From Chloroflexota bacterium (GTDB lineage Bacteria; Chloroflexota; Limnocylindria; QHBO01): 64,000 nt of DNA. Within the stretch, counting starts at the first letter, position 1. Every line of letters begins with the position of its first letter. The stretch is from the NCBI GenBank assembly GCA_013816405.1, contig JACDEL010000002.1, positions 6,220 through 70,219 on the forward strand, given 5' to 3'. A model generated the notes under the pieces. That model did not search any database and had not been told where the DNA came from. It saw only the letters and a list, made by a program, of their open reading frames with translations. Shown here in pieces: positions 6,163 to 62,722 of this stretch. A program made the translations under genes and the position numbers.

Positions 6163-6174
6163 CCGACGTCCTCC

Positions 6175-9126
6175 CTACACCGGCACGAGCGAATGCACGT
6201 GCGCTCGAATGAGATTTGCCGCGTCCCAAGGGTCGGACACCTCCAGGAACGACCAGCGGCCGAGGGCTCCGTGGTTGTTCACAGCGGGAATCCAGTAGGC
6301 GTCAGCAGTAGCGACCTTGGCTGCTTTATCGCGGCGGTGCTCACCTGTCACCTCGATGATGAGATTGAGTGGCTCAGCTCCGCCGGCGTTGATCCGTACC
6401 AGGAGATCGGGGATGTAATTCGCCGCCTCGCCCTCAAACGTGTACGGGATCTTGAAGTTCAGGCCCTGGTTCTTCGCGTAGGCGACGACCTCGTCCATGT
6501 CGTCGAGGACCTGCCCGAGTTTCGCCTCCCAGCCGGAGTCCATAACGAGGAAGTTGAGATGGCTCCGCTCTGTCTCGTAAACCTTCTTGGTGGTCGTGAA
6601 GTCGACGTCGCGGGTCGAGCCGATCGGGCCATACGGGCGCAATATGGGCATGATCCGTTTTTCGCCGGCCGTGCCGCGCAGGATCGCGCGGTGTATGCGG
6701 TCCGCGGCGTCGTGCTCCCACTCCGCGATCAGGAGCATCTGTGGAAAGGCGCTGTCTTTGAGGACAACGCACTCGGCGAGCCAGCGCTCGGTGATCGCGA
6801 GAAGCTGCGGAAAGAGCCAGGGCTGCTCGGCATCCTGAGCCGCCCGAAAGTACGTGTCGAGGACGCGCTTAGCTATCCGGAAAGCAACCTCTTGTGGCCG
6901 CCGCAGCCTCAGGTCATCGAGGTTGGTCTCGATCGATTCCCCAACGATCGGGTCGAGCACAGTGACGACCGGGACTTCGTCTGTCGCCAGGGTCCGTATC
7001 GAATCGGGCGTGAACGCAGCGCTCAGGCGCTCGGTCGGTAGGTCATAGCGGTAGGCAAGCAGGCGCGGGAATGTGAGCTCGAGCTCTGCCCGCTCCGGCA
7101 AAGCCCGGACGCGGTGGATCTCCTTCTGGACAATCGGCCCGGTCTGCCCACTTGTCGGCAGGAAACTGAACGGGACGCCATAGACCTCGGCGTATTCGGG
7201 AGCGAAGTGGCCGTCAGGGCCGGGCTCGTAGCTCACCCGGCGAAGACCGCGCCCGACGACCTGCTCGCACAGGAGCTGCGTCCCGAAGGCTCGCACGCCA
7301 AGGATGTGCGTGACGGTGTTTGCGTCCCAGCCCTCAGTTAGCATCGAAACAGAGACGACGCAGCGGACCTGCTCACCGAGTCGGTCCCGTTTGCCGATCG
7401 TGTTCATCACCTCGCGCAGAAGATCCTCGTCGGTAATCTCATCCACCGAACGACCAGGGAAGCGAGCCTGGTGCGCGGCCTTGAACTCGTCGATCTCGGC
7501 TGCGGCGATCTTCTTGAAAGCCGGATCCATCGCGTCGCCTGATTCGAGCTGAGCGGAGTCGATGAGCAAGGCATTGGGCCGCTCCGACCACACCCCACCT
7601 TCGACATTGCTGAAGATCGGAAGCGCACCAGGGACCGGGGCAGTTGAGCCGTCGGGCAGACGTTTCTCCCAGCCCGCGATCCAGTCGAAGACGAGTTTGC
7701 TGATGTTCGTGTTCTGGCAGACCATGATGAATACCGGCGGCGTGCCCGTCCCGCTTGTCTTCCAGGCGTCGAACGACTTCTGGTAGTTGCCGTACAGGCT
7801 GCGGAGAGCACCTTCGAGCTCCTTCGGCAGCTTTGGTTCGCCTTGGATCTCGTCGGTTGCTCGGCCCTTCTTGGGGAGGTCGTCGCGGATCCGCACCCAG
7901 AGGTCGCGGTACGTCGGGGAGGTTCCGGCAACCGCATCATCTGAGACCGGGACGCGGGGGATCTTCACGATCCCAGCCTCTATCGCGTCGATGAGGCTGA
8001 AGTCCGAGACAACCCAGGGGAACAGAGTTCCCTCCTTGTAGCCCGAGCCGCGGAGGAAAAACGGGGTCGCGCTCAGGTCATAGATCGCCCGGACACCCAA
8101 CTTTGTCCCAACCGCACGAAGGCCGTTGAGCCAAACGCGGGCCGCCTCCTCATCACGGCGTGCTTCCGAGCGCTCGTCGGCTGTTAGTGTCTCCTCCTCG
8201 CTTTGCGGCGCCGACTGGTAGCAGTGATGGGCCTCGTCGTTCAGGACGACGATGTTGCGCTTGGTCCCGAACACACGGCATACCCGCCGGACCATCTGGT
8301 CGGGGGTTTCCTTGAACTGGTCGGTGTTGCCGTCGGGGCCGGCTAAAACCTTCTTTGTAAGCGAGGCTGCCTCGAAGGTCTCTCGCCGGATGAAGCCATG
8401 GAAGTTGGCGATCTCGATCTTCACGGCCTGCAAAGCGTGAAGTTGGTCTGGCGTCAGGAGGTCACGCTCCTGGTAGTAATTGCCAGGCAGGTTCGGCCGA
8501 AGAACCTGGAGTCGATCGCGAATTGTGATGCCTGGCGTGACTACGAGGAAGGTGTCGCTAAAGCGCTTGTCCTTGGGGTTAGCGATTTTGTTGAGCGTCT
8601 GCCAGGCAATGATCATGGCCATGACGACGGTCTTGCCCGAACCGGTGGCCATCTTGAAGGCAATCCGATAAAGGCCAGGGTTGCGTGCTTGGCTATCCTC
8701 GCGCAGCTTGTTTTCGATCCACGGCTGGCGGTGCCCGGCGACCTCAGTCAGGAAGATAGCGGACTCGAGGGCCTCGATCTGGCAGAAGAACAGCGGCTTG
8801 TCCCGTGATGGTTCAGTCCAGTACGCGAGCAAATCGCGAGTGACCGCGGTGATTCCCGGATATCGGGTGCTCCGCCACGCGCCGACATGCTCGCGCACCT
8901 GGTTGATGAAGTCGTTGTCCGTCATTCGCTCGGAGACAAAATCCCCGGGCAGGGAGAGCTGAGCGCCGCCTGTGGTCTTGGGTTTCGGGATCGGCATGAA
9001 GTACGTGCTCCGGCGGCGGCCGTCGGTCACTTCATTCGTGATCCCATCGTCGTTGAACCGGAAATGCCGCGTAGGCTCGCGGAAAGGCGAGTTGAGAATC
9101 GGGTTCTCGATCACCGTTTGGGGCAA
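6175..9126 (-). CDS. res: Type III restriction subunit (SF2 helicase + PD-(D/E)xK nuclease; BPTD_3080-like)
   Basis: MATGSGKT, DEAHH, SATP, SVSMLTEGWD, QVVGRGLRR; C-terminal YIPDLLVRI...IIEVTG. Confidence 0.93.
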   Translation of the reverse strand: MPQTVIENPILNSPFREPTRHFRFNDDGITNEVTDGRRRSTYFMPIPKPKTTGGAQLSLPGDFVSERMTDNDFINQVREHVGAWRSTRYPGITAVTRDLLAYWTEPSRDKPLFFCQIEALESAIFLTEVAGHRQPWIENKLREDSQARNPGLYRIAFKMATGSGKTVVMAMIIAWQTLNKIANPKDKRFSDTFLVVTPGITIRDRLQVLRPNLPGNYYQERDLLTPDQLHALQAVKIEIANFHGFIRRETFEAASLTKKVLAGPDGNTDQFKETPDQMVRRVCRVFGTKRNIVVLNDEAHHCYQSAPQSEEETLTADERSEARRDEEAARVWLNGLRAVGTKLGVRAIYDLSATPFFLRGSGYKEGTLFPWVVSDFSLIDAIEAGIVKIPRVPVSDDAVAGTSPTYRDLWVRIRDDLPKKGRATDEIQGEPKLPKELEGALRSLYGNYQKSFDAWKTSGTGTPPVFIMVCQNTNISKLVFDWIAGWEKRLPDGSTAPVPGALPIFSNVEGGVWSERPNALLIDSAQLESGDAMDPAFKKIAAAEIDEFKAAHQARFPGRSVDEITDEDLLREVMNTIGKRDRLGEQVRCVVSVSMLTEGWDANTVTHILGVRAFGTQLLCEQVVGRGLRRVSYEPGPDGHFAPEYAEVYGVPFSFLPTSGQTGPIVQKEIHRVRALPERAELELTFPRLLAYRYDLPTERLSAAFTPDSIRTLATDEVPVVTVLDPIVGESIETNLDDLRLRRPQEVAFRIAKRVLDTYFRAAQDAEQPWLFPQLLAITERWLAECVVLKDSAFPQMLLIAEWEHDAADRIHRAILRGTAGEKRIMPILRPYGPIGSTRDVDFTTTKKVYETERSHLNFLVMDSGWEAKLGQVLDDMDEVVAYAKNQGLNFKIPYTFEGEAANYIPDLLVRINAGGAEPLNLIIEVTGEHRRDKAAKVATADAYWIPAVNNHGALGRWSFLEVSDPWDAANLIRAHVHSLVPV

Positions 9127-32257: not shown

Positions 32258-32306
32258 GCGCCGGATGTGGGACCATGCGGACCGCCCACCCCGCAGCGAG
32301 CGATGG

Positions 32307-32645
32307 ATGTCGATCCGCACCAACGAGGAACTCGATCCGAATGAGGGACCAGGCTTCGGGTGCTTCGTCTGGCAGGCGCTCCTGTTCGCCGGCCTCCTCT
32401 TCCTCATCCCCATCGGCCTGTTCACCTTCAACTGGCCGGTCTGGCTGCTGGTCGTGCTCCTCTTCATCGACATGGTCCTGCTCTTCCTTGTCAGCATGAC
32501 CAGCGTCTTCCTGCTGCGCGTCTTCTTCGCCGACCGCCGTCGGGGTCGCGGACGGACCATCGGTCCCGCCGCTCCGACCCGGGTCATCACCGTGCAGCCG
32601 CCTGAGCAAGGTGAGCCGCCGACGAACGAGGGGGAGGCCGAGTAG
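32307..32645 (+). CDS. Hypothetical membrane protein (2 TM)
   Basis: Two hydrophobic segments followed by an Arg-rich stretch; stop abuts the next ATG. Confidence 0.7.
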   Translation: MSIRTNEELDPNEGPGFGCFVWQALLFAGLLFLIPIGLFTFNWPVWLLVVLLFIDMVLLFLVSMTSVFLLRVFFADRRRGRGRTIGPAAPTRVITVQPPEQGEPPTNEGEAE

Positions 32646-32972
32646 ATGCCACTGATGGTCACCTTCTTCAACGTCCGGAAGGGGCGCGACGCGCTCTTCA
32701 AGCGCGGGATGCGCCACTTCTTCCCGAGGACGGTGAAGCGCTACGAGGCCGAATACGGGATCCGCTTCATCGGCTGGTTCAACGTCACCGAGGGATCGGA
32801 ATGGAACAACGTTTTGATCCTGGACCTGCCGACGTATTCGGTGCTCGATCGCCTGTACGAGGATCCCGCCGCGCGCGGCCTGGGCCACCGGGTGGCCGAG
32901 TCGATCTTCGACAAGAAGCACATCATCTTCCTGCGCGAGCGGATGGGTCCGGACCTGGTCTACAAGCCGTGA
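32646..32972 (+). CDS. Hypothetical protein, possibly NIPSNAP/dimeric alpha-beta barrel
   Basis: Coupled to both neighbours; YGIRFIGWFNV pattern; GC3-biased codons. Confidence 0.7.
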   Translation: MPLMVTFFNVRKGRDALFKRGMRHFFPRTVKRYEAEYGIRFIGWFNVTEGSEWNNVLILDLPTYSVLDRLYEDPAARGLGHRVAESIFDKKHIIFLRERMGPDLVYKP

Positions 32973-33790
32973 GCGCGCCGCGCATCTCCGCGCTGCGCGA
33001 GCTGGCCGGCGAGGCTGAGCTCGAGCGCAGGGACTTCGTGTACGAGGCGACCGAGCAGCTGCGCCGCTTCCTGGCCGCGAACCGTGAGCGCCTGCTCGAG
33101 ATCGGTCCCATCAAGCTGGTCGACGACGAGCAGGACTACCTCCTGTTCGATCCTGTCGACGAGGTGTGGACCACACGGTTGACCTACCAGGATCCGGCGG
33201 ATAGCGAGTGGTACGACGAGGAGCAGACGGTCGAAGCGGTGAGCGAGGTGGTCGAGCTCTATAACCTGGCCGACATTCTCTCCTGGTTCATCGACGCCGC
33301 CCGCGACCCGACGAACCACCTGATATCGGCCGACAAGCTCGCCGCGCACGAGGCGGTCGCTGACGAGCCGAACGACGAGGATTGGCAGGCGGACCTGTCG
33401 ACGGCCCAGCAGGAGACGATCGCCGCGCAGCGACTCTGGCAGCTGGCCGACGCGTATCGCACCCAGATCGGCGACCAGCAGAAGCAGGTGCTGCGTGAGT
33501 TCGCTGCCAACGCCGAGGAGGTGCTGGCGCGGACCGGCGACCTGGTCCTGCTTGACGAGGAGACCGACACCCTCGTCCTGCGCGCGGATGGTCGGTTCGA
33601 GACAAGCCTCGACCTGTCAGACATGCCGAACGGAACGGCGCTCAACGACGAGCCGCACCGCATGGGCCTGACCGTCACCGACGCTCGCACCGTCGCCGAC
33701 GTGTACGACCCGACGGATGTCCTCCAATGGGTCACCGATGCCCTCACCGAACGCTATCCCGCGGTCGATTTCACCGCCGTCTACGAATAG
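32969..33790 (+). CDS. Acidic hypothetical protein with internal domain duplication
   Basis: GTG overlaps upstream TGA; the two halves align by eye. Confidence 0.75.
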   Translation: MSAPRISALRELAGEAELERRDFVYEATEQLRRFLAANRERLLEIGPIKLVDDEQDYLLFDPVDEVWTTRLTYQDPADSEWYDEEQTVEAVSEVVELYNLADILSWFIDAARDPTNHLISADKLAAHEAVADEPNDEDWQADLSTAQQETIAAQRLWQLADAYRTQIGDQQKQVLREFAANAEEVLARTGDLVLLDEETDTLVLRADGRFETSLDLSDMPNGTALNDEPHRMGLTVTDARTVADVYDPTDVLQWVTDALTERYPAVDFTAVYE

Positions 33791-33794
33791 CCAG

Positions 33795-34445
33795 ATGGAG
33801 CCGATTCCGGTCGCCACCAGCTCGCCGGGGCTTCCGCAGGGCGACGCATTGACCATGGCCGGAGTCGAGGAGCTGTTCGAGGTGGCCGGAGCCCTGCGCC
33901 GCGGGCACTTCGTGCTCAAGAGTGGACGCCACTCGGACCGCTATCTGGAGAAGTTCGCAGTGCTGCAGTACCCGTCCCTGGCGGTCGAGATCGGCCGGCG
34001 GCTGGCCGCCTCCCTCATCGATCGCGATCCGACCCTCGTGGTCGGGCCGACCACGGGCGGGGCGCTGCTCGCCGCCGAGACGGCACGCCAGCTGGAGGTT
34101 TCGCTCGGCCGGACCGTGCGGGGCGTGTTCGCTGAGCCGATGGAGCGGGGGGCTCGCGCGCTGCGCCGCGGCTGGCCGGTCAGCGGCGCCGACCGCGTCG
34201 TGCTGGTCGACGACATCCTGACCACTGGCGCGTCGCTGGCCGAGACCGTGCGGGCCGTCGGCCTGGCAGGGGCGACGCCATTGGTGGCGAGCGTGATCGT
34301 CGACCGCTCTACCGGTCCGGTGGAGATCGGCTGCCCGATCGTATCGCTTGGCAGGATCGAGATCACGTCGTGGACCGCTGACGAGTGCCCGTCCTGCAAG
34401 CGCGGTGAGCCTGTCGTCAAGCCGGGGAGCAGCGCCGCTAGCTGA
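33795..34445 (+). CDS. pyrE: Orotate phosphoribosyltransferase
   Basis: GHFVLKSGRHS, LVDDILTTGAS, CPSC...KPGS. Confidence 0.92.
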   Translation: MEPIPVATSSPGLPQGDALTMAGVEELFEVAGALRRGHFVLKSGRHSDRYLEKFAVLQYPSLAVEIGRRLAASLIDRDPTLVVGPTTGGALLAAETARQLEVSLGRTVRGVFAEPMERGARALRRGWPVSGADRVVLVDDILTTGASLAETVRAVGLAGATPLVASVIVDRSTGPVEIGCPIVSLGRIEITSWTADECPSCKRGEPVVKPGSSAAS

Positions 34446-35292
34446 CCACCGGCTCCTGCCAGTTGACCTGCGTCATGCGCGCCGGGGGAAACTCGCCATC
34501 CGGGGGGACGATCGCGGTCTCCGCCTCCAGGGGGATGCCGATCGGCGCCACGAAATAGCGGCCGGCCAGGCGCCGCGCCTCGGGATCAACGGCGAACCCG
34601 GCCTTCGCGCGGTGGAAGGTGATGGTCAAGTCGGCGACCACGACTGGATCGGAGCGGGTGCCATCGGTCAGGTCGATGCGGGTGGGGGTGTCGATGGCAA
34701 GGACGCGGCAGGGCCGCCCGGCGGCCCGGGCGTGGGTCACGATCGCGTTGAGCAGGTCCACGGCGCTGGAGATCGGCTCGCGCAGCGGGCCGGCCGCGCC
34801 GCTGCCGAGCAGCGCGTCGACGAGGAGGCTCGCCGGTGAGAGCCGTGCCCGCAGCTTGAGCAGCAGCTCAGGGGTGGGCGCCACGAAGAGCGACAGCGAG
34901 CCGGCCGATGCCATTGCCTGCAGCACGGCCCAGTTGTGTGCCGCGGCGACACCGCTGATCCGCGCGGGATCGCCCACTAGGACAGCGGTCACCGCGCGGC
35001 CCGTCGAGGCAAGGCGTCTGGCGGTCACGAAGCCGTCGCCTCCGTTGCTGCCCGGGCCGCACAGCACGACCGTCAACGGGGCCGCGGCGAGCGGCCCCCC
35101 TGGTCCGGTGACCGGCTCGGTCATGGTGGCCAGCTCAGCGAGGGCCAGCTCGGTGACGGCCGCGCCGGCGCTCTCCATCAGGGCATCGGGCGACAGGCCA
35201 AGGCCCTGCGCCGCCTCATCGATGCGCGCCATCTCGTCGCCGCCGATGAGGACCGTCACATTGCGTACCGGCCGTTCGGCCGGATCGGTCAT
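34438..35292 (-). CDS. nnrE: NAD(P)H-hydrate epimerase (stand-alone YjeF_N)
   Basis: LMESAG, CGPGSNGGDG, VDALLGSG, AIDTPT, TITFH, IGIP. Confidence 0.9.
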   Translation of the reverse strand: MTDPAERPVRNVTVLIGGDEMARIDEAAQGLGLSPDALMESAGAAVTELALAELATMTEPVTGPGGPLAAAPLTVVLCGPGSNGGDGFVTARRLASTGRAVTAVLVGDPARISGVAAAHNWAVLQAMASAGSLSLFVAPTPELLLKLRARLSPASLLVDALLGSGAAGPLREPISSAVDLLNAIVTHARAAGRPCRVLAIDTPTRIDLTDGTRSDPVVVADLTITFHRAKAGFAVDPEARRLAGRYFVAPIGIPLEAETAIVPPDGEFPPARMTQVNWQEPVVS

Positions 35293-35750
35293 GGCAGGGT
35301 CTTCAGGTACTCGACGACGGTGGCGATCTCCTCTGGGCTGAGGTTCGTCGGCGGGCCGGCGAAGACGGGCATGCCATTGCGGGCGATTCCGGCCACCGCC
35401 GGATCAGTGCCGGCAATCCAGAGGTTGGCCCAGTCATCGGGACGGTCCTTGCCCAGCTGTTGCAGGTTCGCGCTGGTCGGGCCGTTCTTCACGCCATGGA
35501 GGCTCGGGAAGGCGGCCTGTCCCGCCAGGTCCGGGCCATGGCAGGCCTGGCAGCCTGCCGCCTTGATGATGGACTGAGCATTGAGGCCGCCCGATCCCGA
35601 CGGCTGCGGCGTTCCGAGGATTGGCGGATTGGAGCCGCTCGGGTTGGTGGCGAAGAAGAGTGCGCCGGCGAGGACCATGCCCCCCGTCAGGGTCAGCGCC
35701 CAACCGGGGATGCCGCGCGTCCGTGACTCGATCGGGGTGGGGACCGTCAT
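35289..35750 (-). CDS. Membrane-anchored monohaem cytochrome c
   Basis: N-terminal TM helix, CQACH, distal Met in NGMPVF. Confidence 0.9.
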   Translation of the reverse strand: MTVPTPIESRTRGIPGWALTLTGGMVLAGALFFATNPSGSNPPILGTPQPSGSGGLNAQSIIKAAGCQACHGPDLAGQAAFPSLHGVKNGPTSANLQQLGKDRPDDWANLWIAGTDPAVAGIARNGMPVFAGPPTNLSPEEIATVVEYLKTLP

Positions 35751-35754
35751 TGGC

Positions 35755-37254
35755 TCAGTGCGCCGCCGGCACGGCAGCGGCGTCCAGGACGATGGCGTAC
35801 TCCGCGCGGCGGGCACTGGTGTACATCAGGAACACGTTCAGTGCCAGCACCGCTGCCGCCAATGCGGTGAGGCCGATTCCCGCCCCGAGCCCAAGCCGGA
35901 ACCAGAAGACGAACCCGTCCATCTCCGCGGGCGTCGCCGCCTGCGCCAGCAGCGAGCCATGCACGATTCCACCGGCGATCAGGGCCAGCCCTGCCACGGC
36001 GGCCCCGGCAAAGGCGGTCCACAGCGTTGCCTCGGCGAGCAGGGTCCCTCCCCAATCCCGTCGCAGCAGGCGCGGGAAGGCGTGATCCGCCAACGCCAGG
36101 AACGCGAACGTGGCCGTGCCAAGGAGCGCAAAGAGCCGGACGCCGATCCCCCACTCCGTGCTCCCGACGAGTGCCCGCACCGAGCCGAGGGAGCCGAGCG
36201 CCTCGAGCAGCGCGTTGGCCACCAGGAAGGTGAGGGCCACCAGCGCGAACGGGATCGTCCCCGGCGAGAGGACGAGCGTCCAGCGACCGCTGAGGCTGAG
36301 GAGCAGGTTCGCAACGACCAGGAAGGCGGGAAGAACCAGCAGGAAGGTCGCCACGTTGCCGATCTGGGTGATCGCGAACGGGACCGAGACATCCACCAGG
36401 CTGGCGAGGGGCGCCAGAGTGCTCAGCCCGAGCCACAGCAGCCAGCCGAGCATGGCCAGGCCCCATGAGTAGAGCGGGTTGGCGGCAGCGCGCGGGATGA
36501 CGTAATACAGGGTGCCGATGGCCATGCCGCCCAAGCAGAGGGTCTCCAGGGCACGCCCGTAGAAGGCGGTGGCAAGCGCCATCCCAGTTGCGGGCAGGCT
36601 GAACAGCTTCACGACGCTGAGCAGCTGCGCGAGGCTGATGAGACCGTAGAGCCCCAAGAGCGCGAGGAGCGCCACCCCGAAGTACCAGATGCTGACGTAT
36701 GGCTGCCGCTCCGCCGATGCCAGCACGGTTCGCCAGAAGGCCGCGTTGGCGAGGAGCAGGGCCAGCAGCAGGACGCCGGCCACCGGCAGCGGGAACTCCG
36801 TCAGCGCCCCGGACCCGGAGAGCTGCGGGACGTAGAGCGCCACCAGGCCGGCAGCCAGGCCGATGTTCCAGAGTGCCGCGGCGCCGGCCGCCATCGTCTC
36901 GCTGACCAATCGCCTGCCGAGCAGGCGGGGCGTGATGAAGAAGATCGCCCCTAGCCCGGCGTTGCCGAGCCAGCCATAGACCAGCGAGTTCCAGAAGCCG
37001 GAGGTCGTGGTTGCCGGGCTCAGCTCGAAGGTGAGCACTCCGCTGACCGTGGGCATCTCCAGGTGCAGAGTGAGCTGATCCGGGAAGAGCTGATAGGCCA
37101 CCCACAGCAACCCGATCCCCGCGGCGGCCAGGAACCAGACCAGTGCAGCGACCAGGAATGCGGTCGCGGCATTGTCCGGCTCGTTGGGAATGATCGGGCG
37201 ACGGACCTTGGGTGGCTGGTCGTAGGGTCGCAGCTTCTTGGGGTTCACGGCCAT
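35755..37254 (-). CDS. CcoN (cbb3 oxidase subunit I)-like membrane protein lacking the haem/CuB His ligands
   Basis: ~12 TM helices; YVSIWYF, YYVIPR..NPLYS and TEWGIG match CcoN; all six ligand His absent; TACAAT -10 near 37312. Confidence 0.75.
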   Translation of the reverse strand: MAVNPKKLRPYDQPPKVRRPIIPNEPDNAATAFLVAALVWFLAAAGIGLLWVAYQLFPDQLTLHLEMPTVSGVLTFELSPATTTSGFWNSLVYGWLGNAGLGAIFFITPRLLGRRLVSETMAAGAAALWNIGLAAGLVALYVPQLSGSGALTEFPLPVAGVLLLALLLANAAFWRTVLASAERQPYVSIWYFGVALLALLGLYGLISLAQLLSVVKLFSLPATGMALATAFYGRALETLCLGGMAIGTLYYVIPRAAANPLYSWGLAMLGWLLWLGLSTLAPLASLVDVSVPFAITQIGNVATFLLVLPAFLVVANLLLSLSGRWTLVLSPGTIPFALVALTFLVANALLEALGSLGSVRALVGSTEWGIGVRLFALLGTATFAFLALADHAFPRLLRRDWGGTLLAEATLWTAFAGAAVAGLALIAGGIVHGSLLAQAATPAEMDGFVFWFRLGLGAGIGLTALAAAVLALNVFLMYTSARRAEYAIVLDAAAVPAAH

Positions 37255-37364
37255 CGGCGTGCGCAGCCTCGCATCGATCGGAATGGGTCGCGACGGCGAA
37301 CCCGGCGGCATTGTAGCCGACCTCAGGGGTTTGACCGATCCGAGCGCGGTGCGTAGCATGGGCC

Positions 37365-37439
<75 letters not shown>

Positions 37440-52247: not shown

Positions 52248-54223
<1,976 letters not shown>

Positions 54224-54227
<4 letters not shown>

Positions 54228-54685
54228 GAGCCGGGGTCGAAGGCCCGGGTCGGCAGCCCGCCCTGGGACGGGGCGACGTAGTTCTCGTCGTGCTTGACAA
54301 TCACCTGGGATGCCTCGAAGACGCCATCGGCACCAAGCTCGCCCTCCACGACAGCCCCGATCCCCTCGCGGAACGATCGGGTCGGAGCGGTGGCCGCATG
54401 CACCGAGATCTCAGTGGTGCCATCGGTCAGGACGAAGGTCAGCTCAGGCGCCTCACCGGAGATGGTCCCGACCTTCACCAGGCCGCCGAGCCGCTCCGTC
54501 TTGCCCACCTCGGCCGGCCCGCGCGCCAGCAGCTCCGTCGGAGTCAGGTAGTAGACGAGCGCGTTGCCAACGCTGCTGAAGGCCAGGTAGGCGATCACGG
54601 CGACCACGATGGCCACGCCAATCAGGAGGCCCCATCGACGGCCACGCGGCGGCAGGGGCGGCAGGACCGGCCTAGCCAGGGTCAT
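54224..54685 (-). CDS. ccmE: Haem chaperone CcmE
   Basis: YYLTPTE, RLGGLV, FREG, KHDENY. Confidence 0.95.
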
Positions 54686-54819
54686 TCAGGAAGGTCGACG
54701 TTGTTGCGCCGCACTGTGTCGCGGGCGATGCGCAGCCGGCGCGCCAGAAGCGCGGCGTACAGGCCCATCCCGCCCAGGATCACTCCATAGGCAGCGAGCA
54801 CGAATCCGGCACTGGTCAT
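54682..54819 (-). CDS. ccmD: CcmD
   Basis: 45-aa TM peptide FVLAAYGV between ccmC and ccmE. Confidence 0.75.
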   Translation of the reverse strand: MTSAGFVLAAYGVILGGMGLYAALLARRLRIARDTVRRNNVDLPE

Positions 54820-55553
54820 CTCGCCGGCTCCTCGGCGGCTGCGGCGCCGGGGAGCGCCAGGCGGGCAGTCTGGACAAGGCCGCGGCGGGCATCCTCTTCC
54901 AGCTGCCATTCGAGGCGCGCCAGCTGGTAGCGCCGGATGAGGAGATAGGCCCAGACCAGCGTGAACGCGGCGAGCATGGCCAGCAGCGCCAGCACGAACT
55001 GGAGCGGGGCGCTGGGATTGAGGATCTTCGACGGGTCGCCGATGGTCGGCCCCTGGTGCAGGCCGCGCCACCACAGGACGCTGAAGTGCACGATCGGGAT
55101 GTCGACCGCCGCAATGAGCCCCACCACCGCGGCGCGCGCTGCACGGCGAGCGGGGTCATCGGTCAGCCGGCGCAGGAGGAGGTAGCCGATGTACAGCGCC
55201 AGCAACAGCGCGGTCGTGGTCAGGCGCGGATCCTCCCACTGCCAATAGACGCCCCACACTGGCCGGCCCCACATCATCCCGCCCCAGATGGCGAAGGCGG
55301 TGAACATAACCCCGACTTCGGCACCGGCCAGCGCCAGCGCGTCGAGGCGGAGGTCGCGCCGGATGAGGTAGCCAAGCCCGGCCAGCGCGGTCACGCCGAA
55401 CGAGGCATAGGCAATCCAGGCCGATGCAACATGCACATACATGATTCGCTGGGCGTCGCCCTGATTGAGGTCGGCGGGCACGACGAACAGCCCGTTGACC
55501 GCTGCCCCGATGACAGCCGCCAGCGCCACGAACCCCAGGATGCGGGTCTTCAT
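54816..55553 (-). CDS. ccmC: Haem exporter CcmC
   Basis: RIMYVHV, WGRPVWGVYWQWEDPRLT, WWRGLHQ. Confidence 0.95.
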   Translation of the reverse strand: MKTRILGFVALAAVIGAAVNGLFVVPADLNQGDAQRIMYVHVASAWIAYASFGVTALAGLGYLIRRDLRLDALALAGAEVGVMFTAFAIWGGMMWGRPVWGVYWQWEDPRLTTTALLLALYIGYLLLRRLTDDPARRAARAAVVGLIAAVDIPIVHFSVLWWRGLHQGPTIGDPSKILNPSAPLQFVLALLAMLAAFTLVWAYLLIRRYQLARLEWQLEEDARRGLVQTARLALPGAAAAEEPAR

Positions 55554-56242
55554 CAGTCCTCCAGCAGGAAGCCGTACGTGCCGGCCCCGACCACCAGCAT
55601 GATGACGTCGAACGCGACGAGCAGCTGGAGCCACGATCCCAGCTCCCCGAGCGGATCGCCGCTTAACGACGCGGCCGTAGCCTTCACGGCGGCAAGGAGG
55701 AGCGGCGCGACGACCGGCAGCATCAGGAGCGGCAGCATCACCTCGCGCGCGCGCATCCGCACCGTCAGTCCCGCGTACGCCGTGCCGATCGCCGCGAAGC
55801 CGATGGCGCCCAGCGCGACCGCAATGAGAAGCGGCAGCCAGGCTGTCCCGATCGGGATCGCATACAGGATCGCGACGATCGGCAGCAGGAGGCCCCCGAG
55901 TACTAGCATCACAGCCGCCCCGGCCAGGGCCTTGCCGGCGTAGATCGCGCGACGGTCGACGGGGTAAAGGGCGAGCTGCTCGAACGCCCCGTCATCGGCC
56001 TCGAGCTGGTGCAGGCGCGCCATGGTGAGCAGACCGCCGAAGACGATCGCCAGCCAGAGGAGGCCGGGCGCCGCTTCGGCGAGGCGCCGTGAATCAGGGC
56101 CGAGCGCGAAGCCGAAGAGGAGGAGCACCAATGCGGCGAAGAAGAGGGTCGAGCCTGCGGCCTGCCTGCCGCGCAGCTCGGAAATGGCGTCCTTGCGGGC
56201 AATCGCCATCGCCACCGCCAGGCCCTGCCGCAGGCCGTTCAT
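55553..56242 (-). CDS. ccmB: Haem exporter CcmB
   Basis: KDAISELR, PGLLW, REVMLPLLMLP. Confidence 0.93.
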   Translation of the reverse strand: MNGLRQGLAVAMAIARKDAISELRGRQAAGSTLFFAALVLLLFGFALGPDSRRLAEAAPGLLWLAIVFGGLLTMARLHQLEADDGAFEQLALYPVDRRAIYAGKALAGAAVMLVLGGLLLPIVAILYAIPIGTAWLPLLIAVALGAIGFAAIGTAYAGLTVRMRAREVMLPLLMLPVVAPLLLAAVKATAASLSGDPLGELGSWLQLLVAFDVIMLVVGAGTYGFLLED

Positions 56243-57018
56243 CGGTCCATCCTGGCGACGGCCACGCGTGGTCGCTGCCTGGCGCCGACCGGCCCCGCGC
56301 TGGCTCCAGCACCGCTCACCTCCGCCAGCAGCCCGCCCTCCAGTCGGACCGTGGCGTCAGCCATGCTGGACACGCGTTCAGCCTGGTGCGAGGCGACCAT
56401 GACGGTCACCCCCGCCTCCTTCCAGAGGCCGATGAGCCGATCCACGAGGGCCATCCCATCCCCGTCGAGGGCGGCGTGCGGCTCGTCGAGGAGGAGCAGC
56501 GACGGGCGCGCCACGAGGACGCGGGCCAGCGCGAGGCGCTTGCGCATCCCGGCCGAGAAGGTGCACACGCGTTGACCTGCATGGCCATCCAGCCCGACCG
56601 TTGCCAGGGCTTCGCGAGACACCTCGCCGCCTTCCCGCTCGCCCCAGCCGAACATGGTGGCCGCGAAGCGGAGGTTCTCCTCTGCGGTCAGGTCGTCGTA
56701 GTGCGCGGTGGCGTGCGATAGATAGACGGCACGTCCACGCACAAGCTCCGGCTCGCGGAGGGCATCGATGCCGTCGATTGCGAGGGTGCCGTACGACGGG
56801 CGGATGGCCGTGGCGAGGATCCGGAGCAGGGTCGTCTTGCCCGCCCCATTCGGTCCCAGGAGCGCGACGGTTCGACCGATCTCGACCGTCAACGAAACCC
56901 CGGCGAGCGCGGCGCTGCGACCAAAGAGGCGCGCCAGCTCGACGGTGGCAACCGCCGGAGGGATGGTCCCGAGCGTCCCGGCGAGCCGGGGCGCGACGTA
57001 GATGGTGGTCTGCGGCAT
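56239..57018 (-). CDS. ccmA: Haem ABC exporter ATPase CcmA
   Basis: GPNGAGKTT, FSAGMRKR, LLDEPHAALD. Confidence 0.92.
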   Translation of the reverse strand: MPQTTIYVAPRLAGTLGTIPPAVATVELARLFGRSAALAGVSLTVEIGRTVALLGPNGAGKTTLLRILATAIRPSYGTLAIDGIDALREPELVRGRAVYLSHATAHYDDLTAEENLRFAATMFGWGEREGGEVSREALATVGLDGHAGQRVCTFSAGMRKRLALARVLVARPSLLLLDEPHAALDGDGMALVDRLIGLWKEAGVTVMVASHQAERVSSMADATVRLEGGLLAEVSGAGASAGPVGARQRPRVAVARMDR

Positions 57019-57116
57019 GCTCGACGGCGGGGGCGGATGATGGATGGAGGCTGAGTGTGCGGCCCGGGATAATGGGCGTCAACTCGGGCGACCCCGAAAA
57101 TGGGCGATCATGAGGG

Positions 57117-57998
57117 ATGCTTCGCGAGCCGGACCTCGGAACAATCCTCTCGTCCTGGTCCGCCGACCCGATGCCGTGGATCGGGATCATCTTGGCGACG
57201 GCTCTTTACCTGGCCGCGGTGCGGATCGTCGATCGAGCTCACCCGGCGACCCGGGTGCCGAGATGGCGCATCGGCGCATGGCTGGCGGGCGTGGCCACGA
57301 TCGCGCTTGCCCTGGTCTCGGCGGTCGACATCTATGCCGAAAGCCTCTTCGCGGTGCACATGTTCCAGCACCTCCTGCTGGCAATGGTTGCCCCTCCGCT
57401 CCTGGCGCTCGGTGCGCCGATGACGCTCGCCCTGCGGGCCGCGAGCGCCAACCTCCGCCGCTCAATTCTTGTCCCCATCCTCCACTCCGGGCCAGTGCGG
57501 GCGATCTCGTTGCCCCCGGTCGGCTGGACCGTGTTCGCCGTCGTCATGTGGCTCACCCATTTCAGCCCGCTCTTCAATGCCGCCCTCGAGAACGAAGCGC
57601 TACATTCGGCCGAGCACCTGCTCTACCTGGTGGCGGGCGTGCTCTTCTGGTGGCCGGTGATCGGGGCCGACCCGATGCGATGGCGACTGAGCCCAATCGG
57701 GCGGATGGTCTACCTTGTCGCGCAGATGCCGATCAACACCGCGGTGGGGCTCGCGATCTACTTCGCGCCGGCCATCCTGTACCCTCATTACGCGTCCCTC
57801 GGCAGGACCTGGGGACCCGATCCGCTCACCGACCAGCAGCTCGCCGGCATCGTCATGTGGGGAATCGGGGACGTGATCCTGCTGGGCGCGCTGGTTCTCG
57901 CCATCGAAGCCTGGCTGAGGGCCGATGAGAAGCGCAGTCGCAGGACCCGGGAGCGAGCCGTCCAAGATGTGGAGCGAGCGTCAGTTGAAGGCAGCTAG
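57117..57998 (+). CDS. ctaG: Cytochrome c oxidase assembly factor (Caa3_CtaG)
   Basis: HMFQHLLL, WLTH, EHLLY, FWWPV, DQQLAGIVMW. Confidence 0.92.
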   Translation: MLREPDLGTILSSWSADPMPWIGIILATALYLAAVRIVDRAHPATRVPRWRIGAWLAGVATIALALVSAVDIYAESLFAVHMFQHLLLAMVAPPLLALGAPMTLALRAASANLRRSILVPILHSGPVRAISLPPVGWTVFAVVMWLTHFSPLFNAALENEALHSAEHLLYLVAGVLFWWPVIGADPMRWRLSPIGRMVYLVAQMPINTAVGLAIYFAPAILYPHYASLGRTWGPDPLTDQQLAGIVMWGIGDVILLGALVLAIEAWLRADEKRSRRTRERAVQDVERASVEGS

Positions 57999-58938
57999 CC
58001 GTCGTGGCTGGGCATGCGTCGCCGCCATCGGTCTCCTCCTGGTCGCCTGTTCGGGTCCGGCTGCCAGCGTCGCGCCTTCGGACGCTGGGCAATACCCGGG
58101 TTGGCCGGGAAGCGGCACCGTGGTCGCCAACGGCGACTTCATTCCGGTCATCGTCTCGGCCGAGGTCGGCACCGGCCACAGCCGCCTGATGATCACGCTG
58201 CAGGACGATGCCGGCCGTTCGCTCGCTGCTCCGGCAGTCACGGTTCAGGAGCGATTCTTCGACCTTGCCGCCAGCACCGACACGCCGGTCAGCCAGGTCG
58301 ACGGCACCTTCCGCTGGCTCATTCCGGACACAAAGGCGATCTACACCTCCTCCGCCGATTTCGCCCGTGCCGGCGAGTGGGGAATCGAGGTCATCGGCCA
58401 GGAGGCAGGCAAGCCGGATCGAACGGCTCGCGCGACCTTCTCAGTGCGCGAGAAGACGGATACGCCGGCGATCGGTGCGGACGCGCCCCCTTCCGACACG
58501 CTGACCGCGACCGATCCGACGGCAATTGCAGCGATCTCGACCGACACGGCACCTGATCCCGCCTTCTACGGCCTCTCGGTCAAGGGCGCCATCGCGACCG
58601 ACAAGCCATTCGTGCTCGTCTTCGCCACGCCGCTCTTCTGTACCAGCGGAACGTGCGGCCCGGCGCTCGACCTCGTCAAGCAGGTTGCGCCGGACTACGC
58701 CGGCCGGGTGACCTTTATCCACGTCGAGCCTTACCTGCTCCAGGTGATCGATGGGCGAACCCAGCCGAAGCTCGACGCACTCGGCCATCCGCAACCGGTC
58801 AGGGCCGCCGTGGAGTGGGGCCTTCCGACCGAGCCGTACGTATTCGTGGTGGACGCGCAGGGCAAGGTCGCCGCCAAGTTCGAGGGGATGGCCTACCCCG
58901 ATGAGCTGACAGCCGCCCTGGACGCCGCCCTCCCCTGA
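57985..58938 (+). CDS. Lipoprotein with Ig-like region and thioredoxin-like CxxxxC domain
   Basis: Lipobox LVAC; FATPLFCTSGTCGP, FIHVEPY, WGLPTEP; start uncertain. Confidence 0.75.
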   Translation: MKAASRRGWACVAAIGLLLVACSGPAASVAPSDAGQYPGWPGSGTVVANGDFIPVIVSAEVGTGHSRLMITLQDDAGRSLAAPAVTVQERFFDLAASTDTPVSQVDGTFRWLIPDTKAIYTSSADFARAGEWGIEVIGQEAGKPDRTARATFSVREKTDTPAIGADAPPSDTLTATDPTAIAAISTDTAPDPAFYGLSVKGAIATDKPFVLVFATPLFCTSGTCGPALDLVKQVAPDYAGRVTFIHVEPYLLQVIDGRTQPKLDALGHPQPVRAAVEWGLPTEPYVFVVDAQGKVAAKFEGMAYPDELTAALDAALP

Positions 58939-58948
58939 GTCGGGCCGG

Positions 58949-59566
58949 CTACAGCACGTACAGCGTCGAGAAGAGGATCACCCACACCACGTCGACGAAG
59001 TGCCAGTAATAGCTGGCCGCCTCGACCGCCGTGTGGTGCTCAGCCGAGATGAGCCCGTGGCGTGCCCGCGTGGCGACGATCGCGATGAAGCCCAGGCCGG
59101 CCAGGACATGGGCGCCATGGAAACCGGTCAGCGTGTAGAAGGTAGACCCGAACACCCCTGCATCCAGCCCGAAGCCGTTGGTCGCGAACTCGTAGCCCTG
59201 GACCAGGATGAAGATGCTGCCCAGCAGGAGTGTCACGCGCAGCGCCCGGCGCATGGTCGCCACCTCGCCGCGCCCGATCGCGCGGACGGCCCACTGCATT
59301 GTTACGCTGCTGGACACGAGCAGGAGCGTGTTCAGCCCCGGCAGGAGCAGCTCCGGCCGCTCGTGGCCCTCCGGCGGCCACCCGCCACTCTCCGAGCGGA
59401 TCACGAAGTAGGCCGCGAACAGGGCGCCGAAGAGCATCACCTCCGACAGGATCCCGAGCTTGACGCCGAGCAGCATGTTGCTGCGGCTGGCGGCGGGGTC
59501 CTCCTCGCCGAAGCCCATGTGGTCGTCATGCGCGCCCCCAGGAGCCGATCCCGCGTGAACGCTCAT
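58949..59566 (-). CDS. ctaE: Cytochrome c oxidase subunit III
   Basis: SEVMLFGALF, NTLLLVSSS, TGFHGAHV, YWHFVDVVW. Confidence 0.95.
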   Translation of the reverse strand: MSVHAGSAPGGAHDDHMGFGEEDPAASRSNMLLGVKLGILSEVMLFGALFAAYFVIRSESGGWPPEGHERPELLLPGLNTLLLVSSSVTMQWAVRAIGRGEVATMRRALRVTLLLGSIFILVQGYEFATNGFGLDAGVFGSTFYTLTGFHGAHVLAGLGFIAIVATRARHGLISAEHHTAVEAASYYWHFVDVVWVILFSTLYVL

Positions 59567-61395
59567 TGGGCGGCTCGCCCTTCCGCCGGGACGCCGACAC
59601 CACCGCCGTATTCGTAGGGTCCGGCGCTGACCATCGGGATGTGGTCGAAGTTCTGGATTGGCGGCGGGGACGAGATCTGCCATTCCAGCGTGTGTGCGCG
59701 CCATGGGTTCGGGGCCGCCCTGGGGCCCCGGCGCCACGACCAGACCATGTTGAAGACGAACACCGCCACCGACAGGAAGATGTTGAAGGCGGCGAAGCTG
59801 ATCCACAGGTTCAGGCCACCGAACTGGGAGGGATAGTCGGCGACGCGGCGGCGCATCCCCTCGATCCCCAACCAGAACATCGGCAGGAAGGTGGCGTTGA
59901 AGGCCAGGGTGAACCACCAGAAGTGGAGCTTGCCGAGCCGCTCCGAATACATCCGGCCGGTGATCTTGGGGTACCAGTAGTAGGTGCCCGCAAAGAGCCC
60001 GAAGATGGTGCCGCCCACGATCGTGTAGTGGAAGTGGGCGACCACGAAATACGTGTCCGAGAGAGTGATGTCGGTCGGCACATCGGCCAGGTAGACGCCG
60101 GTGATGCCACCGATCAGGAACGCCCAGATGAAGCCGAAGACCCACAGCATCGGCGTCTTGAAGTGGAGCTTGCCCATCCAGATCGTGCCGAGCGCCGACA
60201 GGAACACGATCCCGGTCGGGACCGAGATCAGCTCGGTCGTGAGCATGATCGGGATGTGGAAGAACTCGGCCATGCCGCTCACGAACATGTGGTGGGCCCA
60301 GACCATGAAGGACAGGACGCCGATGGAGATGAACGACAGGACCGCCAGCGGATAGGCGAAGAGCGGCTTGCGCGCGAAGACCGGCACCACCTCCAGGATC
60401 GCTCCCAGACCGGGCAATCCCATGATGTAGACGGCGGGATGTGAGTAGAACCAGAAGAGGTGCTCGAACAGGATCACGTCGCCGCCGCGGCTGGGTCGGA
60501 AGAACGAGGTGCCAAGGACCCGGTCGAAGAGGAGCATGGTGAAGGCCGCGGCCACGACCGAGGTGGCGATCAGGGCGAGGGTGGCGGTCACGGTCAGGGC
60601 CCAGACGAAGATCGGCATCCGCATCAATGACATACCTGGAGCACGCATGCGGAACACGGTCACCAGGAAGTTGATGGCGCTGATGATCGAGCTGATACCG
60701 ACGGTGACGAACGCCATCAGGTAGGCCTGCTGGCCCAGGTTTGCCTGCTGGCTGAGCGGCGGATAGGCGGTCCAGCCGCTGTCGAAGCCACCGAGCAGCG
60801 GATTGATCGCGACCAGCAGGATGGGCAGCGGCAGGAGCCAGTACGAGAGGGCGTTGGTCTTGGGGAACGCCATGTCGCGCGCCCCGATCATGATCGGGAC
60901 CAGGTAGTTGCCCAGGCCGCCGATGATCGAGATCAGGGCGACGGTGATCATCATCGCCCCGTGCGTGCTCATGACCGTGTTGTAGGCCTCCTTGCCGAGC
61001 ACGAGGCCGGGCTGCGCCAGCTCGAAGCGCATGAGCATCGCGAACGAGCCCGCGATCAGGAACAGGAGGAAGGCGGTGACGAGGTACTGGACGCCGATGA
61101 CCTTGTGATCGGTGGTGAAGCGGAAGTAGCGACGCCAATCACCCGCCGTTCCATGAGCGGCGTGCTCCTCGGCGGGATCCACCTGGCGCCCCGCCGCCCA
61201 GGTCACCCAGAATCGGAAGGCGCCGATGCCGAACAGGAAGCCGATCACGGCCAGCAGGTAGGCGAGGCCAAGGACCTGGCCGTCATCAATGATCAGACCT
61301 GCGCCGCGAGCGAGCGTCAGTGACCCAACCCCCACGGCAATGCCAGTGGCGGCGCCCAGCACGGCCCTCAGCATCCCGGGCCTCAGGATCCTCAT
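59563..61395 (-). CDS. ctaD: Cytochrome c oxidase subunit I, A2 type, with N-terminal 2-TM extension
   Basis: TTDHKVIG, STHG, WFYSHPAVY, VWAHHMF, VAHFHY, GMRRR. Confidence 0.96.
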   Translation of the reverse strand: MRILRPGMLRAVLGAATGIAVGVGSLTLARGAGLIIDDGQVLGLAYLLAVIGFLFGIGAFRFWVTWAAGRQVDPAEEHAAHGTAGDWRRYFRFTTDHKVIGVQYLVTAFLLFLIAGSFAMLMRFELAQPGLVLGKEAYNTVMSTHGAMMITVALISIIGGLGNYLVPIMIGARDMAFPKTNALSYWLLPLPILLVAINPLLGGFDSGWTAYPPLSQQANLGQQAYLMAFVTVGISSIISAINFLVTVFRMRAPGMSLMRMPIFVWALTVTATLALIATSVVAAAFTMLLFDRVLGTSFFRPSRGGDVILFEHLFWFYSHPAVYIMGLPGLGAILEVVPVFARKPLFAYPLAVLSFISIGVLSFMVWAHHMFVSGMAEFFHIPIMLTTELISVPTGIVFLSALGTIWMGKLHFKTPMLWVFGFIWAFLIGGITGVYLADVPTDITLSDTYFVVAHFHYTIVGGTIFGLFAGTYYWYPKITGRMYSERLGKLHFWWFTLAFNATFLPMFWLGIEGMRRRVADYPSQFGGLNLWISFAAFNIFLSVAVFVFNMVWSWRRGPRAAPNPWRAHTLEWQISSPPPIQNFDHIPMVSAGPYEYGGGVGVPAEGRAAQ

Positions 61396-62129
61396 GGGGG
61401 GGACCCGCTCGGCTGCGGCGACGGCTTCGGTTGCTGGCTCAGCCAGGATTCGAGAGCCGCGCGGCCACTCACCACGACGGTGAGATGCATGTCGGTATGG
61501 CCGAAGCCGCACAGCTCCGCACAGAGACCGGGATAGGTGCCCTCCACCGTCGCGGTCAGGTAGATCTGGGTCGGCCGCCCCGGGACCGCGTCCTGCTTTA
61601 CGCCAAATGCGGGCACCCAAAATGAGTGGATCACGTCGTCGGAGTTGATGACGAGGTGGACGCGCTCGCCGAGCGGGATGTGGAGCTCCTTCGAGACGAC
61701 GCCGGCGTCGGGGTACTCGAAGTGCCAGGCCCACTGCTCCGAACGCACCTGGACCTCGAAGTCCGAGCTCTGGGCCCCGCGGATGTCGATCAGCCCCACC
61801 GCGCCGTAGCCGAACAGGCCGATCACCAGCGCGAAGCTGACGCCGAGCCAGATCGACTGGAAGCCGCGACTGCCATGGACCGGCGGCCCATCGGTCTCAT
61901 CGCCATTCGCCCGAAAGCGCAGGGCCGAATAGGCAAGCCCTACCACCACAAACATGAGAACCGGGACCGACACGATGGTCAGCAGCACGAAGGCTGAGTT
62001 TTCGATCACCGCCTCTCGGGAGGCGATGACGGGGATGATCTGGATGCCCGCGACCAGGACGATTCCCACGATGGAGAGAACCGCCCAGGCCGCGGCCGCG
62101 ATCCAGAGGTGGCGCCGAGGACTGGTCAC
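61392..62129 (-). CDS. ctaC: Cytochrome c oxidase subunit II (CuA, no fused cytochrome c)
   Basis: QWAW, DVIHSFW, CAELCGFGHTDM. Confidence 0.95.
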   Translation of the reverse strand: MTSPRRHLWIAAAAWAVLSIVGIVLVAGIQIIPVIASREAVIENSAFVLLTIVSVPVLMFVVVGLAYSALRFRANGDETDGPPVHGSRGFQSIWLGVSFALVIGLFGYGAVGLIDIRGAQSSDFEVQVRSEQWAWHFEYPDAGVVSKELHIPLGERVHLVINSDDVIHSFWVPAFGVKQDAVPGRPTQIYLTATVEGTYPGLCAELCGFGHTDMHLTVVVSGRAALESWLSQQPKPSPQPSGSPP

Positions 62130-62144
62130 GCTGGACGAGGCAGA

Positions 62145-62582
62145 TCAGGTGACCGTGAAGTCGATGTGCATCCCCTTCTGGTAATGCACGAGGTCCTCGA
62201 CGTGCAGGTTGCAGAAGATGACGTAGTGCCCGGGCTGGAGCGTCAGCGTCAGGGAGCGGTCACTGCTGCCGGACTTGATCTCGGCAACCTCGCTCGGGTC
62301 GCCGACCTCTGACAGTTCGGGCGAGTCTTCGACCACGGTGCCGTCAGCGTTGGTCGGGAGCGCGTCCGCCTTTTTGTCCGTCTTGCGGACGACGAACTCA
62401 TGCTCCTTGTCGCCGTCGTTCTTGATGTTGAAGGTGAGCGAGCCGGCCTTGAGATTGGCCGAGCTCAGGGTGATCTGCCACTCCTTAACGGTCGCCGAGA
62501 CGGGACCGGCGGACGGCCCCGAACTCGTGCACGAGACAAGCAGACCGCCGATCGCGATCAGCGCCAATACTCTTCGCGCCAT
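62145..62582 (-). CDS. Cupredoxin (type 1 copper) lipoprotein
   Basis: Lipobox LVSC; HEFVV ... FCNLHVEDLVHYQKGM; GAGGAG SD. Confidence 0.85.
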   Translation of the reverse strand: MARRVLALIAIGGLLVSCTSSGPSAGPVSATVKEWQITLSSANLKAGSLTFNIKNDGDKEHEFVVRKTDKKADALPTNADGTVVEDSPELSEVGDPSEVAEIKSGSSDRSLTLTLQPGHYVIFCNLHVEDLVHYQKGMHIDFTVT

Positions 62583-62722
62583 TTCCGTATCTCTCCTCCT
62601 CGCCGCTTGACGTGGCGCATGGCATGACCATGAGACGCCGCCAGGTGCCGCGTTGAGGCCTAGCATCGGGGGCCATTGCGTCCGCTCATATACTCGCAAC
62701 GAGCCATTCTGGAGAACCGCAT

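Follow-up and report, generated by a model that had tools for sequence, protein, structure and literature searches.

We identified, in a 64,000-nucleotide stretch of the genome of a soil Chloroflexota bacterium from the class Limnocylindria (contig JACDEL010000002.1, positions 6,220 to 70,219; hereafter, the window), a relative of CcoN, subunit I of the cbb3-type haem-copper oxidases (HCOs), which has kept the fold and lost all of the metal ligands. This ligand-less CcoN-like protein, here labelled HCOx, is a presumably redox-dead member of the HCO fold that is mis-annotated as a cbb3 oxidase: wherever its homologues bear a name in public sources, it is ‘cbb3-type cytochrome c oxidase subunit I’, the very mislabelling that the initial annotation of this DNA had anticipated. 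HCOx is encoded directly upstream of a membrane-anchored cytochrome c and of nnrE (together, the trio), and we give about an even chance to the reading that it is a scaffold that docks this tethered cytochrome.

Sequence and structure comparisons both lead to CcoN. HCOx matches the Pfam family COX1 (PF00115) with an E-value of 1.1e-22 and 80.9 bits (cut-off 34.8) and scores 86.4 bits against the NCBIfam ccoN equivalog TIGR00780, below the cut-off of 583.15. The nearest solved chains by sequence (HMMER) are CcoN proteins (9g6b_A, E 2.9e-16; 3mk7_A, E 1.1e-12), aligned over residues 32–435. The AlphaFold model, built from a 27-sequence alignment, consists of 12 long helices, with a mean predicted local distance difference test score (pLDDT) of 69.5 and a predicted template modelling score (pTM) of 0.74. 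A Foldseek search with this model returned CcoN first (9g6b_A, 6xkw_n, 8smr_E and 3mk7; E ~1e-12, template modelling scores 0.71–0.77), followed by NorB of the cNOR nitric oxide reductases (NORs) and then by subunit I of the A and B families. HCOx has the fold of HCO subunit I and is closest to cbb3 CcoN. Its identity to CcoN/FixN (3mk7, 9g6b, 8smr, 6xkw), which share the 12-helix fold, is ~20%, and the framework residues R110, N130, E153, Y186, S188, W190, Y251, P254, N316, T366 and P394 are the same as in 25 canonical representatives. The initial annotation, which had described an intact open reading frame (ORF) of 499 codons with about 12 transmembrane (TM) segments and CcoN landmarks and had proposed superposition on CcoN as a check, is borne out on these points. 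The start of the gene is placed at 37254 because the N-terminus MAVNPKKLRPYD is invariant in 27/27 aligned homologues, and a longer in-frame ATG at 37359 was excluded because it abuts the neighbouring tRNA-Met gene.

Every ligand position of CcoN is altered in HCOx. Mapping by HMMER alignment to CcoN, and by MAFFT alignment with the 25 canonical representatives, shows that (in P. stutzeri numbering) H60 is replaced by F87, the CuB ligand H207 by R234, H257 by A284, H258 by S285, H345 by V372 and H347 by L374, and that the cross-link Tyr251 corresponds to S278. In terms of motifs, RPLHTN has become TSGFWN, WYGHN has become FYGRA, GPHH has become APLAS, and WTIGHVH has become WGIGVRL. These replacements, together with the presence of exactly four His, none of them in a ligand column (0/6), had been noticed at the outset, and all are confirmed by the alignment to CcoN. 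Among 130 sequences of the family, not one has His in a haem-ligand column; F87 is found in 128/128 sequences in which the column is filled, V372 in 120/130 and L374 in 115/130. The column of H207 holds Arg in 123/130 sequences and His in only 3/130, as a lone His, and that of CcoN Y251 holds S, A or G in 129/130, a comparison of this column that does not extend to a Tyr on another helix. A functional oxidase or NOR is recognized by six ligand His, and an O2-reducing HCO by a His-Tyr pair; HCOx has neither at the corresponding columns. Because ligand His is missing from the haem columns of all 130 sequences, the view that HCOx is non-catalytic, advanced in the initial annotation, is supported at the level of sequence, and the protein would be devoid of haem b, haem b3 and CuB.

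It is conceivable that HCOx binds haem or a metal through ligands other than His and catalyses some new redox reaction. Ligand sets can drift, and the accessible part of PMC11214002 describes, for HCO families, a low-spin haem ligated by His/Met or His/Lys and an active-site His-to-Asp replacement. In HCOx, however, all six positions have changed at once, to F, R, A/G, S/A/T, V and L, which are not usual ligands of haem or copper. The helices contain no invariant Met, Lys or Cys, with Cys occurring 0–2 times per protein and not conserved, and the conserved His residues 391 and 432 would lie, according to the model, at opposite faces of the membrane. We regard such a cofactor-binding enzyme as very unlikely.

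HCOx is kept under purifying selection and is not decaying. A homologue search yielded 413 matches; the 120 listed show 59–100% identity, are mostly ~490–520 aa long with 1–6 His each, and include four fragments of 379–442 aa. The homologues that are named belong to Chloroflexota or Candidatus Limnocylindria, and 27 aligned sequences, down to 58% identity, share 116 invariant columns. We searched 200 sampled genomes from the class Limnocylindria, plus the window’s own, at a threshold of E <= 1e-40, and found HCOx in 64/66 genomes of the window’s taxonomic family, covering 15/16 genera (60/62 genomes when the four unpublished ones, G084, G093, G120 and G156, are excluded), and at this threshold in 0/134 genomes from the other four families of the class. 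None of the matches listed from this genome survey contains an internal stop. Ratios of non-synonymous to synonymous substitution rates (dN/dS), calculated by the Nei-Gojobori method (NG86) for the 12 closest of 51 loci, beyond which synonymous sites saturate, were 0.10–0.25 for HCOx, 0.13–0.28 for the cytochrome c and 0.07–0.15 for nnrE. These values agree with the original argument that the gene is not a pseudogene, and the contrary outcome envisaged there, namely, close orthologues that keep the His ligands and a copy that evolves neutrally, was not seen. The opposing explanation, that HCOx is decaying neutrally as a relic or arose as an artefact of annotation or assembly, could appeal to the related locus L055, an outlier at 39% identity in which each gene of the trio is split over several frames (5800–8900). 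Because the frameshifts hit all three genes, L055 is attributed to assembly indel errors, not to divergence or decay; with the listed copies intact, selection evident, more than a hundred columns invariant among the aligned sequences, and the gene present in nearly all genera of the family, this explanation is hardly credible.

The second component of the proposed module is the cytochrome. Its 153-residue sequence opens with the conserved N-tail MTVHTPIE, which is followed by a TM helix at ~16–34, a Gly/Ser/Pro linker and a haem domain predicted with pLDDT > 90. The hallmarks of a class I c-type cytochrome are present: C67xxC70H71 and the axial Met127 are invariant in 31/31 sequences, and PF00034 is matched with an E-value of 3.6e-10. 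No match to FixO/CcoO was obtained at E <= 1, and the neighbours in sequence and fold are generic small class I cytochromes and CcoP and QcrC domains (best Foldseek E 0.028). The TGA stop of HCOx is separated by 4 nt (gcca) from the ATG of the cytochrome gene, the stop of which overlaps the ATG of nnrE as ATGA, in agreement with the order initially described (a CQACH cytochrome c 4 bp downstream, then nnrE). Among 51 related loci taken from species-representative genomes, the cytochrome gene is located directly downstream of HCOx in 46, and the contigs of the remaining five stop within HCOx; the conserved linkage, which the initial annotation had suggested checking, is therefore found wherever the locus is informative.

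A model of the complex of HCOx with this cytochrome obtained a score of 0.72, compared with 0.00 for the best of three controls. The mark that we used for such scores, which this pair passes, is reached by 116/157 solved complexes and 2/215 mismatched pairs, counts that are only a rough guide for models made with our own alignments. Contact agreement among the runs was at least 54%, and the pLDDT of the partner was at least 73. The confident contacts involve, on the cytochrome side, residues 4–45, that is, the N-tail, the TM helix and the juxtamembrane segment NLxGENPPI, and on the HCOx side, residues 111, 113, 186, 222–230, 251–255, 260–273 and 286–315, that is, helices VI–VIII and cytoplasmic loops. 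The model suggests that HCOx binds the anchor of the cytochrome. We propose that HCOx descends from a C-family (cbb3-like) HCO subunit I, the 12-helix membrane framework of which would have been retained while the cofactors disappeared. It would hold the N-tail, TM anchor and juxtamembrane segment of the cytochrome encoded next to it, and the flexible Gly/Ser/Pro linker would tether the haem domain at the outer face. There, the haem could carry single electrons, most plausibly between a b6c-type complex III and aa3-type oxidases, the presumed partners of the trio cytochrome. The initial annotation had suggested a repurposed non-catalytic scaffold in the form of a transporter or channel, an assembly factor or a partner subunit of an active oxidase; the scaffold survives, as a docking site for the cytochrome that we rate at even chances, and none of the three specific roles was shown.

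Several observations weigh against this docking role. Only the anchor of the cytochrome is placed with confidence in the complex, not the haem domain, and the success of the model may partly reflect likeness to solved CcoN-CcoO complexes. The HCOx model itself is poor at residues 277–330, the former CuB region. Anchoring alone is an insufficient reason for the conservation of a 12-helix protein because a single TM helix already anchors the cytochrome. The pair is not simply a relic ccoNO because the cytochrome is not CcoO-like and matches generic class I proteins. The trio is adjacent neither to complex III nor to the oxidases. The most conserved segment of HCOx is the cytoplasmic N-tail, with 14/27 positions invariant, and an electron-carrier role at the outer face leaves this tail unexplained.

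The conservation pattern also bears on a different function, namely, that HCOx is a non-redox channel or transporter of protons, ions or a small solute, using polar pathways and the emptied cavities, with the cytochrome c regulatory or merely co-expressed. A buried Arg (R234) occupies the column of the CuB ligand H207; D390 (124/130) and H391 (129/130) are near-invariant; H432 is found in 111/130 sequences; and the polar framework residues N130, E153, N316 and T366, common to the canonical C family, are retained. Strong conservation extends over every one of the 12 helices, and column identity in the TM segments averages 0.78. Together with the retention of a full 12-helix protein, R234, the D390-H391 pair and the N-tail would be compatible with a channel or transporter, or with an additional partner on the cytoplasmic side. 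However, only the HCOx family conserves R234 and the D390-H391 pair, which other ligand-poor clades do not, so that a transport mechanism common to the wider radiation is not indicated; no transporter family was matched in Pfam or NCBIfam; and redox carriers recur as partners, both separately encoded and fused, which speaks for electron transfer. A channel or transporter appears to us unlikely, if worth keeping in mind.

The fusions emerged from the wider radiation of ligand-poor proteins. A search of 1.84 billion representatives with the family profile produced 808 matches at E <= 0.001. The family proper scores 389–536 bits (P0122–P0130), and below it there is a gap down to 163 bits, from which point canonical and ligand-poor proteins are mixed. 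From the window’s HCOx and 150 listed matches, we kept the 102 that are full-length (at least 430 aa); six His are present at the ligand columns in 25 of these, one to four in 30, and none in 47, so that the ligand set is incomplete in 77/102 of the full-length representatives nearest to the HCOx family, proportions that are biased toward ligand-poor proteins by a query profile which is itself ligand-less. In a FastTree phylogeny of all 102 rows, the HCOx family falls within a 28-row clade (27 zero-His, one partial; local support 99), and 39 further ligand-poor rows form a clade beside canonical sequences. A quick IQ-TREE search (LG+G4, root not inferred) with 46 of these rows gave the same picture: the family lies within a 17-row clade of zero-His proteins only (SH-like approximate likelihood ratio test (SH-aLRT) 100), and another ligand-poor clade, of 13 rows (99), is separate from it and nested next to canonical P0268 and P0242. 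Starred branches of this second tree force at least two changes, with both trees being quick ones.

Four proteins of the radiation carry an electron-transfer domain at the C-terminus. Two without any ligand His, P0155 and P0166, end in a FixO-type haem c domain (CWNCH and CWYCH, respectively). P0176, likewise with 0/6 ligand His, ends in a cupredoxin with the type-1 copper pattern H...C..H..M, and P0226, with 1/6, has a similar C-terminal cupredoxin that also displays the type-1 copper ligand pattern; both these proteins possess extra C-terminal TM helices. All four fusions belong to the 28-row FastTree clade, and P0155, P0166 and P0176 to the 17-row clade, with P0226 outside that tree. The FixO-fused P0155 and the cupredoxin-fused P0176 are sisters (SH-aLRT 99); therefore, close relatives differ in their carrier domain. 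The most telling hint at function is this repeated joining of a presumably dead scaffold to a periplasmic one-electron carrier that is itself intact. The members of the clade comprising P0143–P0178 resemble HCOx in having no ligand His at all and in being labelled cbb3 subunit I where named, but they differ from it in that their mutual identity is at most ~30–46% and some bear a fused carrier domain instead of a separate cytochrome gene. Few of the distant ligand-less representatives are named; one cluster is assigned to Acidimicrobiia. As a lead only, the nearest Atlas clusters are mostly from Verrucomicrobiota. Relatives of P0160 and P0148, from the sister-group alignment, were not found in the genome contigs searched.

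The respiratory gene inventory of the window’s genome (G000; 95% complete, 2.5 Mb) delimits the possible partners of the pair. PF00115 is represented by three genes, HCOx and two of the A family (560 and 483 bits), both of which keep the HPxVY and WAHHMF motifs, with AHLHY also present in the C2 copy. This 95%-complete genome yielded no CcoO/FixO, no ccoP and no true ccoN, and FixO was found in 1/201 sampled genomes of the class. We accordingly rejected HCOx as a subunit of an active cbb3 oxidase, and the initial suggestion of a paralogue partnered with such an enzyme, for which a canonical ccoNO was sought, is not upheld. The sole FixO/CcoO-like match in these 201 genomes (G069:C1:108255-108629, locus L060) is located in a 488-aa open frame and may represent a fusion or an atypical form; G069 also encodes HCOx. 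There is one complex III, of the b6c type, on a contig other than that of the trio (L058, G000 contig C18, operon 4230–8554), consisting of cytochrome b6 (6203–6937), subunit IV (6954–7568), a Rieske protein and a cytochrome c truncated where the contig ends; NrfD/alternative complex III (ACIII) was not found in the genome. Upstream of cytochrome b6, a 658-aa flavoprotein (GltD-like Pyr_redox_2/Fer4_20 with 2x[4Fe-4S] domains) is encoded, and its stop codon overlaps the start of the cytochrome b6 gene; it is unusual for an NAD(P)H-type Fe-S flavoprotein to be coupled to a b6c complex. Our searches of the genome detected just three class I cytochrome c domains, the one in the trio among them. 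The third, outside the window, is a 164-aa protein at the very end of its contig (G000 C12:83734-84045; L059 13726-14220, minus strand), with two ORFs without a family match downstream and the upstream context lost.

Within the window, the Ccm system I genes (CcmF, CcmB and a CcmA-like ABC protein) are found at 52248–57018 and an A-family oxidase cluster (COX2, COX1, COX3) at ~58949–62756, with an extra cupredoxin ORF at 62145–62756, so that the two clusters lie 15–25 kb from the trio. This proximity, in a genome that depends on very few c-type cytochromes, could be taken to indicate that HCOx is a transient assembly or stability factor, for example, a chaperone-like platform for the maturation of the cytochrome c or of aa3. 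HCOx does not, however, share an operon with ccm or cox genes; the 4 nt gap, the ATGA overlap and the 1:1 pairing in 46/46 informative loci fit a stoichiometric partner, and fusions with carrier domains would be unusual for a transient chaperone. We therefore deem an assembly factor improbable. The intervals 32265–33790 and 57044–58938 of the window contain ORFs of 126, 108, 329, 294 and 337 aa without a Pfam match (E <= 0.001).

The arrangement has partial parallels among known systems. As in ccoNO, the gene for a membrane-anchored monohaem cytochrome c follows that for the oxidase-like protein, but HCOx differs from CcoN by the absence of the six His and the cross-link Tyr, and the cytochrome paired with it falls outside the CcoO/FixO family. 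Cytochrome cy is a membrane-tethered cytochrome c that serves complex III and oxidases. The trio cytochrome shares the succession of anchor, linker and class I haem domain with cytochrome cy, with CcoP of the R. capsulatus CIII2CIV supercomplex (6xkw, 6xkx) and with actinobacterial QcrC, and has weak sequence matches (E 1e-4 to 1e-3) to CcoP, CcoP-cy and QcrC chains. What sets it apart is the predicted placement of its anchor on a 12-helix dead-oxidase scaffold of its own; no such scaffold is known for cytochrome cy, CcoP or QcrC. The gNOR and other variant HCO-NOR families also have altered active-site ligands, as described in the accessible part of PMC11214002, whereas HCOx has lost all three CuB and three haem His. 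A bolder generalization, which we put forward tentatively and consider doubtful, is that ligand-less CcoN shells are an unrecognised, widespread respiratory component: the dead oxidase would have been recycled, at least twice and independently, as a docking module that presents a one-electron carrier to complex III and terminal oxidases, be it a cupredoxin, a CcoO-type haem domain or a class I cytochrome c on a tether, and in the family studied here, HCOx and its cytochrome c would form an obligatory b6c-aa3 link, with the invariant cytoplasmic N-tail coupling the pair to a further partner.

The third gene of the trio, nnrE, is co-oriented and probably co-transcribed with HCOx and the cytochrome c gene (Table 1); it comes next in 43/51 loci, and the contigs of the other eight stop before its position. 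A functional link between HCOx and nnrE was considered and rejected, operon hitch-hiking being the probable cause of their proximity: a separate NnrD (Carb_kinase) is encoded on contig C81 of the window’s genome, and in G020, a genome of another family that contributed the sole such locus inspected, nnrE follows the gene for phosphoenolpyruvate carboxylase without HCOx and the cytochrome c. The nnrE gene is a housekeeping gene, and its linkage to HCOx looks lineage-specific. The other neighbours of the trio are a phosphoribosyltransferase, an isochorismatase and the divergent tRNA-Met gene. In one metagenome-assembled genome, two contigs (L029 and L032) contain two diverged HCOx-cytochrome c-nnrE copies, with 54% and 51% identity to the window’s HCOx, and G108 (C33 and C125) also has two diverged copies, of the whole trio arrangement or of HCOx.

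Table 1. The trio and its upstream boundary, in window coordinates
Feature	Position	Strand	Length	Remarks
HCOx, ligand-less CcoN-like, 12 TM helices	35755–37254 (including stop)	-	499 aa	
Membrane-anchored monohaem class I cytochrome c	35289–35750	-	153 aa	CQACH
nnrE (YjeF_N, NAD(P)H-hydrate epimerase)	34438–35292	-	284 aa	TIGR00197, 113.7 bits (cut-off 88.6); PF03853, 103.6 bits
tRNA-Met (CAT)	37365–37439	+		Divergent from the trio, upstream boundary

The six His are treated as a defining invariant of the HCO superfamily, and here a whole, strongly conserved family exists without all six. According to the accessible text of Sousa et al. 2011 (PMC3084760), sequences without the six His were dropped when the HCO database was built, and that of Murali et al. 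2024 (PMC11214002) treats the replacement of a single ligand His as a first. Our full-text literature searches, with subscription journals and supplements outside their scope, found no description of ligand-less HCO families. Metabolic reconstructions that take HCOx at its current name would wrongly infer high-affinity O2 respiration in these soil and freshwater Chloroflexota, and probably in other phyla too. HCOx represents a respiratory enzyme turned pseudo-enzyme that keeps its redox partner, and this family lets non-catalytic, structural roles of oxidase scaffolds be tested.

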